Assembly: GCA_963663765.2 (NCBI GenBank)
Contig: CAXXUA010000003.1
Location: 544,001 to 608,000 of the forward strand
DNA from: Candidatus Poribacteria bacterium
Lineage (GTDB): Bacteria > Poribacteria > WGA-4E > WGA-3G
Length of the DNA stretch: 64,000 bases
Direction: 5' to 3'
In this document: positions 3,553 to 52,473 of the stretch, in pieces
How the letters are laid out: every line of letters begins with the position of its first letter
Position numbering within the stretch: position 1 is the stretch's first letter
Position numbers and translations under genes: made by a program
The notes under the pieces: generated by a model
Told to the model about the DNA's origin: nothing
Database searches by the model: none
The model's input: only the letters and a program-made list of their open reading frames with translations

Positions 3553-3921
3553 CAGGACTTACGCAGTTTTCATGATCCAATCAAGAATTAAGACGAAAAC
3601 GATGTAATTTTCAGCATTTTTTTGGTTTCCGGCGCGCTTACAAAGCACGTCTACCATTGGGGGCGCGCATACAAAGCACCAAATCAACGGTATGAATGCC
3701 ATTTAGGCATTCCCCGCCTACCATTGGGGGCGCGCTTACAAAGCACCAAATCAACGGTATGAATGCCATTTAGGCATTCCCCGCCTACCATTGGGGGCGC
3801 GCTTACAAAGCACGCCTACCATTGGGGCGCGCTTACAAAGCATCAAATCAAGAAATCAAGAAATCAACGGTATGAATGCCATTTTGGCATTCCCCGCCTA
3901 CCGTTTAATGCGTAAGTCCTG
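3553..3921. mobile_element. MITE family A (TIR CAGGACTTACGCA) with an expanded internal REP array
   Basis: 13-bp TIRs; 5-bp direct repeat AACGT at 3548-3552 and 3922-3926; about five copies of GGCGCGCTTACAAAGCACGCCTACC inside, three interrupted by a 36-bp element. Confidence 0.85.
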
Positions 3922-3960: not shown

Positions 3961-4137
3961 ATAAAAGTGTCAATTTAAGAAAAAAGTGTTGGTGTTTCTA
4001 TTGTGGGAGGGGTTTTCAACCCCGATTTGAGAGGAAAAGCGCATAAAATCCAAATCAACGTCAGAAGCGCGTTTGGCTTCTGTCGGGGTTGAAAACCCCT
4101 CCCACAATACGTCAAAATACTTAAATTGACGCTTATG
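3961..4137. mobile_element. Degenerate IS231-like-ended MITE carrying a REP doublet, inserted in a GTAGGTGCGG-type REP
   Basis: Ends GTGTCAATTTAAG...CTTAAATTGACGCTTATG; internal inverted pair GTGGGAGGGGTTTTCAACCCCGA/TCGGGGTTGAAAACCCCTCCCAC; imperfect flanking duplication of about 16 bp. Confidence 0.6.
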
Positions 4138-16236: not shown

Positions 16237-16415
16237 TCTGAACCAGGATTTTCAGGATTACCAGATTTTCAGGATTTACCTCGTCAAGGGTTTTTGATAT
16301 GTGTTTATGCCCTCTTTTGGAATAGGATCTGATGAGAAATATCTTGATAATCTACTAATCCCGGTGAATGCCATAAGGCATTCATACCGTTGATTTGAAA
16401 ATCCTAGTTCAGACC
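16237..16415. repeat. Degenerate AGGATT-type inverted repeat element containing a 35-bp hairpin insert
   Basis: GTCTGAACCAGGATTTT...AAAATCCTAGTTCAGAC; insert at 16363-16397. Confidence 0.55.
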
Positions 16416-16495
16416 AAAATCAAGAATACCATAAAAATCCTATATAATTGCTAATCTTAACCCAAAGTTAACTGGCATTACGATATATTCTTAAG

Positions 16496-17460
16496 ACTGA
16501 ATAACCCTGCCTTTTTAGCGTTTGCTATCTCCCTTTATATTTCCGTGCTACAATAACCTTTTATCAGGGTTATTCAGTTTTAGGGATTTTAGCTGTTTCC
16601 TGAGAAAATCGCGACCGGGAGGTCGCTCCTACCGCGTGGTTATTTTTTTGAAAAATTCAAACATTAGGTAAACTGAATAAAACTGCCTTTTTAGCGTTTA
16701 CTATCTCCCTTTATATTTCCGTGCTACAAAAACCTTTTATCAGGGTTATTCAGTTTTAGGGATTTTAGCTGTTTCCTGAGAAAATCGCGACCGGGAGGTC
16801 GCTCCTACCGCGTGGTTATTTTTTTGAAAAATTCAAACATTAGGTAAACTGAATAAAACTGCCTTTTTAGCGTTTACTATCTCCCTTTATATTTCCGTGC
16901 TACAAAAACCTTTTATCAGGGTTATTCAGTTTTAGGGATTTTAGCTGTTTCCTGAGAAAATCGCGACCGGGAGGTCGCTCCTACCGCGTGGTTATTTTTT
17001 TGAAAAATTCAAACATTAGGTAAACTGAATAAAACTGCCTTTTTAGCGTTTACTATCTCCCTTTATATTTCCGTGCTACAAAAACCTTTTATCAGGGTTA
17101 TTCAGTTTTAGGGATTTTAGCTGTTTCCTGAGAAAATCGCGACCGGGAGGTCGCTCCTACCGCGTGGTTATTTTTTTGAAAAATTCAAACATTAGGTAAA
17201 CTGAATAAAACTGCCTTTTCAGCGTTTACTATCTCCCTTTATATTTCCGTGCTACAAAAACCTTTTATCAGAGTTACTCAGTTTTAGGTATTTTAGCTTT
17301 TTTCTGAGAAAATCGCGACCGGCAAATCAAGAAATCAACGGTATGAATGCGCGTATGGCATTCACCGGGTATGAATGCCTGTTGGCATTCCCCGGGTCGC
17401 TCCTACCGCGTGGTTAATTTCTTTGAAAAATTCAAACATTAGGAAAACTGAATAACCCTG
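16496..17460. repeat. 176-bp tandem array: five family B MITEs separated by a near-identical spacer of about 56 bp
   Basis: MITE starts at 16565, 16741, 16917, 17093 and 17269 (exact period 176); the last copy is divergent and carries an insertion. Confidence 0.92.
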
Positions 17461-51673: not shown

Positions 51674-52473
51674 GGGTGTGTAAAGTTTTTGCACAGAGGT
51701 ACAAACTTTTGTTCTCTTTAGTCCCGTAGGTACGATATATCTATAGAAAGACGTTATCACCCTCTCTTGAGTTCCATAGGAATGACATAGAAGAATAAAC
51801 ATATCGTCCCTACGGGACTAAAAAGGCGTGTGAACTCGTATTCTATAAACATATCGTCCCTACGGGACTGAAGAGTATGGTTGATATTAACAATATTTCC
51901 TTATGTTGACAACACCTATGGGTCCTGTTCCCGCAATCTCTAATTTAATCAGTTGCGGCGTGGCACAGAGACCCATAGGTGTCAACTTAAGAAAAAGTCA
52001 AGTGCTAAATACCCCATCCCGGTAGGCGTGCTTTGTAAGTGCGCCGATAAATAAAGGATTGGCAACGGCGCGCTTACAAAGCACCAAATCAACGGTATGA
52101 ATGCCGTTTAGGCATTCCCCGCCTACCTTGAGTGAGAAAATCGGGGTTTCAAGGTTTCCCTCCTATTGGCAACGGCGCGCTTACAAAGCACGCCTGCGGG
52201 TGAGTGCGGGTGAGTGCGGGGCGCGCTTACAAAGCACGCCTGCGGGTGAGTGCGGGTGAGTGCGTGGCGCGCTTACAAAGCACGACTGCAGGTGAGTTTG
52301 GGTCAGTGCGTGGCGCGCTTACAAAGTACGCCTACCTTGAGTGAGAAAATCGGGGTTTCAAGGTTTCCCTCCTACAATAATATGAATCGCTAAGTTGACA
52401 CCTATGCGGCGGGGCACAAAGACCCCGCCCTACAATGGAGAATGAACAGTGTGTGCAAAAACTTTACACACCC
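51674..52473. mobile_element. 800-bp non-coding MITE (IS256-like ends) inserted in the ISAs1 transposase
   Basis: 22-bp TIR GGGTGTGTAAAGTTTTTGCACA; 8-bp duplication ACAACAGA at 51666-51673 and 52474-52481; removal restores VITT|DTLLTQ. Confidence 0.88.
51974..52406. mobile_element. IS231-like-ended MITE with an internal REP array, nested in a REP
   Basis: TIR CATAGGTGTCAACTTA; 18-bp imperfect duplication CGGCG(T/G)GGCACA(G/A)AGACC. Confidence 0.75.

Follow-up and report, generated by a model that had tools for sequence, protein, structure and literature searches.

Putative mobile hairpin modules with a constant leader, resembling cyanobacterial small dispersed repeats, in a sponge-symbiont Poribacteria genome

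In 2008, Elhai and colleagues reportedly described families of small dispersed repeats (SDRs) in cyanobacteria that share a hairpin with compensatory changes, in units of 21-27 nt. These repeats are said to be nested in other repeats, in minitransposons and in their own copies, and to carry heptamer tandem repeats, and an RNA intermediate was reportedly proposed for them. SDR5 is precisely inserted into HIP1, and the two reports on this place no SDR outside Nostocaceae (PMC4390886; PMC5861425); another lists SDRs among short repeats with origins still to be elucidated (PMC3116915). Then, could repeats of this kind occur in another phylum? Here, we explore a stretch of 64,000 nt from a Candidatus Poribacteria bacterium (GenBank assembly GCA_963663765.2, contig CAXXUA010000003.1, positions 544,001 to 608,000; hereafter the window), in which a 35-36-nt hairpin element, termed alpha, lies within other repeats. 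With a probability of about 0.5, we read alpha as one subfamily of genus-wide, non-autonomous, SDR-like mobile hairpin modules that spread by copying and not by cut-and-paste. In every such module, the leader, (C)AAATCAAC, is 9 nt long and constant, and it is followed first by a small hairpin and then by a tail rich in C/G.

The alpha unit is composed of (C)AAATCAAC followed by GG-TAT-GAATGCC-(4-5 nt)-GGCATTC-CC-CC, that is, the leader, a bulged 7-bp hairpin and CCCC. Its core, GGTATGAATGCC-N3-8-GGCATTC, is matched six times in the window (expectation over 100 dinucleotide-preserving shuffles, 0.00), and the single-strand DNA fold of alpha reaches -7.2 kcal/mol (z = -3.46). The six places named in the initial annotation are all borne out (Table 1; the minus-strand copy occupies 16362-16397), as are the additional 5' octamers of two copies, namely two AAATCAAG octamers at 3844-3895 and one at 17323-17393. 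Filled and empty sites do lie side by side. In the MITE (miniature inverted-repeat transposable element) at 3553-3921, three units of a repetitive extragenic palindrome (REP), REP-A, are filled at AAAGCAC/GCCTAC (the slash marks the point of insertion here and below) and two, at 3637-3654 and 3802-3819, are empty. Near the copy at 52085-52120, the REP-A sites at 52180-52197, 52226-52243 and 52272-52289, and one on the minus strand at 52022-52039, are empty as well. A five-unit tandem repeat (~176 bp, 16480-17460) has a REP-C hairpin at the end of each unit, where GCGACCGGGAGGTCGC is empty four times and filled in the fifth unit only. In this filled array, whose fold reaches -18 kcal/mol (z = -4.24), the two loop bases GA of the empty REP-C site are missing. 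Consequently, the clean insertion proposed at first stands at the precise pairs but not in REP-C. Three different hosts are seen in the window (the CAGGATTT repeat besides REP-A and REP-C), and the earlier description of alpha as an insert without terminal inverted repeats (TIRs) or target duplication holds.

The whole genome of this sponge-symbiont bacterium (G000; 6.35 Mb in 15 contigs, ~41% G+C, 97.8% complete) contains 412 exact alpha cores, and a looser grammar gives 536 arrays. The leader octamer, AAATCAA(G/C), occurs once in 276 arrays, twice in 162, three times in 32, four times in 15, five times in three and six times in one; the 47 arrays that lack it mostly come after another hairpin module. 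A single hairpin module is present in 435 arrays, and the remaining 101 contain two (90), three (9), four (1) or five (1), arranged as direct tandems and not as inverted doublets. No insertion of the leader alone was found in hosts A, B and C. Moreover, an antisense hairpin of 28-32 nt is present in 74 copies genome-wide at one fixed internal position of alpha, after GGTATGAAT. Of these composites, 37 come after a leader and 24 after another hairpin module, and in kind their flanks are like those of plain alpha. Since no lone leader is inserted in hosts A, B and C and the derivative keeps the flanks of alpha, the ends define the alpha unit. The antisense inserts are of two types, GAGCATGC with GCATGCTTC and GGCGAATGC with GCATTCGCC (e.g., C3:13,6xx and C2:137,8xx).

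A long version, with alpha ends around a recombinase gene, had also been suggested as worth looking for, and the half-site search gave no gene carriers. The half-sites are alpha copies broken either by the antisense hairpin (74) or by a MITE with the TIR ATGAAGATTAAT (11). The latter is located in the alpha loop at 11 sites with differing alpha contexts, for example, C2 near 89,680-89,850, C4 near 1,092,700 and C13 near 648,560, and it either targets the alpha loop or rides as alpha cargo. Minisatellite-like tandems also occur, of the whole 36-nt unit (at least six copies) and of the leaderless 27-nt module (five or more), at G000:C6:362582-362788 and G000:C3:369303-369440.

The genome search and flank tabulation that the initial annotation had called for show that 40-nt flanks recur more than five times in the genome on the left side of 476 and on the right side of 471 of the 536 arrays, that is, ~89% are themselves repeats, and both flanks are unique in only 10 arrays. 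The hosts are the 3' site of REP-A (A3, 139 arrays), the 5' site of REP-A (A5, 43), the loop of beta-type hairpins (B/H, 63), the CAGGATTT repeats (29), REP-C (25), host F (18), host D (11) and host G (5), while 94 arrays adjoin another module and 109 fall elsewhere. Alpha thus lives almost only inside other repeats, and REP hairpins are among those it "parasitises", but the site of insertion is not always a hairpin loop. Folding of the empty hosts puts the site in the apical loop for the beta and H hairpins alone, whereas for REP-A (two bases from the foot), REP-C and F it is in a stem arm near the foot. No real gene of this genome has alpha inside, and open frames running across copies are spurious products of the repeat arrays. 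The cross-tabulation of left and right hosts gives 324 concordant and 17 chimeric arrays in ten host classes, and filled as well as empty versions are seen for the ten classes with concordant flanks. Alpha is therefore a discrete, gene-less inserted unit in at least ten repeat hosts, and the copies do not come from one or two ancestral insertions, the case that would have undone the initial interpretation.

Could alpha nevertheless be immobile in itself, with MITEs and REP tandem arrays spreading a small number of ancient insertions that recombination and gene conversion between repeats then reshuffled? Passive spread with MITE and REP arrays does account for many copies. Large hosts dominate (A3 139, A5 43 and B/H 63 of 536 arrays), whole units form tandem arrays, and in a set of 260 distinct contexts a single loop is common to all A5 copies and likewise to all F copies. 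There are also the 17 chimeric joints (e.g., C15 near 94,621 and C5 near 83,661), long fusions in which one repeat family gives the left flank of alpha and another the right, which suggest that alpha is also a portable homology and mediates rearrangement. As the whole explanation, however, passive spread is quite unlikely: the ten concordant host classes, filled and empty, need at least ten true insertions, 138 distinct 6+6-nt contexts are occupied, and 10 arrays have unique flanks on both sides. The comparison among genomes given below speaks against it too.

The junctions are asymmetric. For 81 of the 260 distinct 12+12-nt contexts, the same genome also contains an empty version. Precise pairs were found at AAAGCAC/GCCTAC, at GCGC/GTATGG (the loop of the beta hairpin), at GTAGGTC/GGGTAG and at GGGCG/GGGTCTC, where the element begins with AAATC, without the C. 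At other sites, target bases are gone: GA in REP-C, C in the other REP-C arm (C2) and CT in host F, while in host E an A is either common to element and target or lost. At A5, the filled copies read GCCTAC and the empty ones GCTTAC (135 of the 141 copies of the commonest context), and GCCTAC is the flank of the commonest donor. The 3' side can be summarized as CCCC-G-N-N-T, with G at +1 in 110 and T at +4 in 107 of the 138 distinct 6+6-nt contexts, in which the commonest 3' words are GGGT (34), GCCT (21) and GTAT (10). In the same 138 contexts the last 3 nt before the AAATCAA octamer leader are GCC (31), ACC (27), GCG, TTC or GGT (8 each) or others, and no constant 4-5-nt target word was found 5' of alpha. 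The 5' boundary is fixed within 1 nt, and octamers are reiterated there 0-6 times. At the 3' boundary, in contrast, the sequence resembles the flank of a donor, resolved through microhomology. The ends of alpha, CAAATC... and ...CCCC, are not inverted repeats, and the filled/empty pairs show no duplication of the target, in agreement with the initial annotation; by the classical criteria, therefore, alpha is not a MITE.

The same leader precedes several hairpins. After AAATCAAC, the stem GGTATGAAT (alpha) occurs 466 times, GCCAAATGC (beta) 126 times, GTCAGAAGC (delta) 15 times and GCCGAATGC (gamma) 12 times; these families differ by compensated pairs and have the loop GCGTATG in common. A perfect stem of at least 6 bp follows 555 of 1279 leader sites, compared with 33 of 413 sites of a control word. 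Within alpha, the compensated stem variants GAATGCT with AGCATTC and GAATACC with GGTATTC were found 31 and 27 times, against 7-11 for each one-sided variant, so the alpha hairpin is under constraint. When 25 elements of the beta, gamma and delta types, taken from the window and from other genomes and chosen beforehand for having 7 or more of 9 positions paired, are aligned, five of nine stem pairs are changed on both sides (19 cells), which none of 500 shuffles reaches, and slid controls are far lower.

Such covariation, together with the exact conservation across species described below, would also fit an element that is maintained by selection for a function in cis, for instance as a protein-binding hairpin or a terminator, rather than by mobility. 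We consider this most improbable. The positions are not orthologous, 89% of the copies are inside other repeats, and the plus strand has no U-tract. Orientation is unrelated to the neighbouring genes (114 co-oriented, 114 opposite), and divergent spacers are favoured over convergent ones (99 vs 37, ~2.7x; background 452 vs 453). On the orientation and the divergent-spacer bias, a terminator role was rejected. Readings as attC, dif or a CRISPR-like array were also set aside, as judged from the sequence, which contains no second core site, spacers or duplication.

All of the 80 contig-database matches listed are Candidatus Poribacteria or uncultured-bacterium records of metagenome-assembled genomes (MAGs). 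The leader with alpha is present in 38 of 39 genomes of the same genus, with 0-310 copies and the most in G000. Outside the genus, it was found in 23 of 65 genomes of the sister genus (0-53 copies), in 1 of 20 genomes of one further genus, and in none of the 51 other genomes of the phylum searched. The leader word itself is enriched in all 39 genomes of the genus (13-519 copies, compared with 0-10 of the control word) and near background elsewhere. In G003, which lacks alpha, 42 leader elements of the gamma and beta types were found. Orthologous genes between these species are 73-80% identical, and the alpha sequence is exact. Among 82 alpha sites from other MAGs, none was shared, and when the arrays of G000 were compared with these sites, 66 flank pairs matched, of which seven were inspected and none had alpha at the same place or in the same host. 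A master or orthologous alpha locus, the candidate addressed by both of these comparisons, was therefore rejected. Since alpha is exact at 73-80% gene identity and its sites are not shared, it has been active since the species split. Both this exactness at unshared positions and the range of 0 to 310 copies within one genus count against purely passive spread. Alpha had no matches in viral contigs and no family match in Rfam, and a literature search, supplements apart, gave no description of such repeats in Poribacteria.

Which enzyme, then, could move alpha? The initial annotation favoured a Y1 enzyme of the HUH type, either a REP-associated tyrosine transposase (RAYT) or the TnpA of IS200/IS605, acting in trans to excise and insert a hairpin-bearing single strand. 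The genome does have six Y1_Tnp matches, namely four IS200/IS605 copies and two RAYT-like genes. As a rule, REPs have a GTAG or CGTC tag adjoining the stem-loop (PMC3733652). On the minus strand, alpha in REP-A is 2 nt from the GTAG of the host, like the GTAG-tagged REPs of two reports (PMC8266576; PMC3733652). The bulged hairpin, the short 5' word, the missing target duplication and the orientation fixed relative to the host also fit such an enzyme, as does a strand polarity common to alpha, REP-A and REP-C over blocks of 0.3-1 Mb. However, the polarity blocks have no flip at dnaA, HUH cut-and-paste predicts no loss or change of target bases where 1-2 are lost or changed at the 3' junction, no constant target word exists in the 138 contexts, and alpha has one hairpin where IS200/IS605 has two different end hairpins.

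The genes themselves point the same way. No alpha is present in the flanks of the four IS200/IS605 copies. The flanks of the intact RAYT on contig C4 are other REPs; the truncated RAYT (G000:C10:24997-25277, L092/L093) is cut by the contig end and frameshifted within a run of A, and arrays of the main alpha host, REP-A, flank it, with ~10 tandem REP-A units upstream and one alpha variant ~600 bp upstream. None of 11 RAYT loci of relatives has flanking alpha. Y1 is present in 36 of 40 genomes of the genus, and the four genomes without Y1_Tnp (G024, G001, G010 and G042) still hold 25-91 alpha copies, of which G024 (one contig) has 71-91, G001 62-65 and G010 67-76, at a completeness of 92-97% for these three. 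In contrast, G003 has three Y1 matches and no alpha, and G009 has 21 Y1 matches and three alpha. RAYT occurs in 89 of 112 genomes of the family, including 28 of 39 in the same genus and 57 of 65 in the sister genus, where only 23 of 65 have any alpha. Y1/RAYT is thus neither necessary nor sufficient for alpha, and because the distributions are discordant, the catalyst is not a Y1/RAYT HUH enzyme in our assessment; mobilisation by one, the mechanism first put forward, is unlikely. The four IS200/IS605 copies (tnpA and tnpB; C5:688634, C3:287718, C5:550867 and C5:353059) are near-identical, the fourth ending after tnpA; their conserved sequence begins at TTAACACTATTCCG, and TTAAC may be the target word.

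Compared with known systems, alpha is similar to REPs and to the REPINs of RAYT systems in its small bulged hairpin, short conserved 5' word, intergenic position, and many, clustered copies, as three reports describe them (PMC3116915; PMC8266576; PMC3733652), and it lives among genuine GTAG-tagged REPs in a genome with RAYT genes. It differs in having no GTAG or CGTC tag of its own (the host GTAG is 2 nt off only in REP-A), in forming direct tandems instead of inverted doublets, and in that no RAYT is flanked by alpha arrays and RAYT presence does not track alpha. With IS200/IS605 (IS608, ISDra2 and miniature derivatives), it shares hairpin-bearing ends, the missing target duplication, an orientation that is fixed where the targets are asymmetric and, beside the hairpin, a short 5' word that could act as a guide, but alpha has a single hairpin and no fixed tetra- or pentanucleotide target, loses target bases, and occurs without Y1.

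The other enzymes searched for in this 97.8%-complete genome were an IS110 DEDD transposase (PF01548) and a reverse transcriptase (RVT_1, PF00078, E <= 0.001), with no matches to either. Within 400 bp of the arrays, no gene family is enriched beyond spurious repeat open reading frames and large paralogous families. Retro-insertion, in which a small leader-initiated transcript would be reverse-transcribed into nicked targets, would explain the fixed 5' end, the reiterated octamers and the variable, microhomologous 3' flank, all of which resemble target-primed reverse transcription. It is very unlikely, given that no RVT_1 is found in the genome with most copies and that Rfam has no matching family. 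The logic of non-long-terminal-repeat retrotransposons is similar by analogy only: a defined 5' end, reiteration of a simple repeat, copy-and-paste, and microhomology with small target deletions at the priming end. The differences are that no reverse transcriptase was found and that alpha is 36 nt, non-coding, and has its tandem repeat at the 5' end of the plus strand. On the defining features of each, then, alpha is not a REP/REPIN-RAYT element, an IS200/IS605 element, a MITE, an IS110 element or a retroelement, and by distribution the catalyst is neither a Y1/RAYT HUH enzyme nor IS110, with no detectable reverse transcriptase.

How could SDR-like modules of this kind be copied? The asymmetric junctions suggest that a single-stranded template is copied in a target-primed manner. 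Synthesis on a single-stranded donor, DNA or RNA, would be primed by a 3' end at a short S/G-N-N-T site in repeat DNA, with entry by microhomology within the 3' flank of the donor. Copying would then pass the hairpin and end at the fixed 5' end at the leader, where terminal slippage would give the reiterated octamers. Such copying would account for the fixed 5' boundary, octamer reiteration, donor-like 3' flanks and small target losses. More tentatively, and with considerable doubt, alpha may represent a genus-wide class of mobile DNA of at most 36 nt, with a constant 9-nt leader and interchangeable hairpins, that would multiply without any known transposase family, by target-primed copying of a single-stranded template with a fixed 5' end at S/GNNT, with a leader-specific nickase/ligase or the replication/repair machinery as the agent.

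Several points weigh against the reading of alpha as an SDR-like module spread by copying. Neither an enzyme nor a template molecule has been found, and the anatomy of the junctions is the sole ground of the copying model. The junction anomalies of A5 and F may each be one event that was then spread, as all A5 copies have the loop TTTT and all F copies the loop TATT in the 260-context set; one empty A5 copy already has GCCTAC, and prior target variants could be the source of the anomalies. A constant 5' boundary is unlike random template switching, so a sequence-specific factor is still needed, and an RNA template is weakened because no RVT_1 gene was detected. Because of its pre-filter, the covariation alignment overstates how large a part of the cells is paired, but its two-sided changes are not affected. 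The four public sequencing runs consist of short-read contigs that end at these repeats (e.g., at 3580, 4089, 16225 and 17422) and give no read-level evidence of gain or loss. Finally, the demonstrable independent insertions amount to about ten host classes, and most of the 536 arrays may be passive copies.

The features of the window are listed in Table 1. Among them, the delta element has the leader of alpha with another hairpin, and its carrier is the fold-back repeat GTGGGAGGGGTTTTCAACCCC ... GGGGTTGAAAACCCCTCCCAC at 3990-4115. In metagenome contigs, a form without 4048-4083 (the delta element) was observed, which is not assignable to the locus in the window since the host is itself repeated.

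Table 1. Coordinates of alpha copies, related elements and host repeats in the 64,000-nt window (position 1 is its first nucleotide).
Feature	Position	Strand	Description
Host MITE	3553..3921	.	13-bp TIR CAGGACTTACGCA; tandem of ~31-nt REP-A units
Alpha copy	3680..3715	+	Leader CAAATCAAC, hairpin GGTATGAATGCC-ATTTA-GGCATTC, CCCC; at AAAGCAC/GCCTAC of REP-A unit
Alpha copy	3747..3782	+	In the next REP-A unit of the same MITE, same AAAGCAC/GCCTAC site
Alpha copy	3844..3895	+	Two additional AAATCAAG octamers ahead of the leader
Delta element	4051..4088	+	Leader CAAATCAAC as in alpha, other hairpin GTCAGAAGC-GCGTTTG-GCTTCTGTC; within fold-back repeat
Alpha copy	16362..16397	-	Loop TTAT, 3' ACCG; in CAGGATTTTC-type octamer repeat (host E)
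Empty REP-C sites (four)	16611..17154	+	GCGACCGGGAGGTCGC at 16611, 16787, 16963 and 17139
Alpha array	17323..17393	+	One additional octamer, leader, alpha' module (loop GCGTATG), alpha module (loop TGTT); placed in loop of REP-C hairpin
Alpha copy	52085..52120	+	Loop GTTTA; at AAAGCAC/GCCTAC

The orientation of alpha, REP-A and REP-C is common over the 0.3-1 Mb blocks mentioned above, with several flips, on contigs C3, C4, C5 and C6, and alpha shows the same blockwise polarity across the chromosome in the single-contig genome G022. The blocks have no tie to gene direction, and the GC skew is too weak to define replichores. A replication-strand bias was therefore rejected as the source of the polarity, which is real but blocky and without a flip at dnaA.

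The closest match remains the SDRs. Like SDR1-8 of Nostoc punctiforme and other Nostocaceae, which were compared by description only, alpha is a very small, gene-less repeat in many copies, nested in other repeats and in its own kind (94 arrays adjoin a module, and the MITE at 3553-3921 is a host). Insertion is precise in both, short tandem repeats are present (heptamers in SDRs, octamers in alpha), and both comprise several hairpin families with compensatory changes, with no TIR, target duplication or known enzyme. The differences are that alpha is found in a different phylum, Poribacteria, that it measures 35-36 nt (a 27-28-nt module plus the leader) against the 21-27 nt that SDRs reportedly measure, that one constant 9-nt leader runs across its hairpin families, and that it has no HIP1 target. 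By analogy, alpha appears to work as the cyanobacterial SDRs do, in a new phylum.

To our knowledge, mobility has been claimed for no DNA units smaller than SDR-type repeats, and a literature search found no resolution of their mechanism since 2008. The genome studied here is an independent and very clean SDR-like instance, with hundreds of copies, ten host classes and sister families under one leader, and related genomes, some of them complete on a single contig, range from 0 to more than 300 copies. It also gives testable constraints, since neither Y1/RAYT nor IS110 nor reverse transcriptase fits, and template copying with a fixed 5' end is what the junctions point to. In addition, short-read assemblies break at alpha elements, a point of importance for symbiont MAG quality. 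If the reading proposed here is true, the SDR phenomenon would be a general and mechanistically new way for tiny selfish DNA to spread, and not a cyanobacterial oddity.

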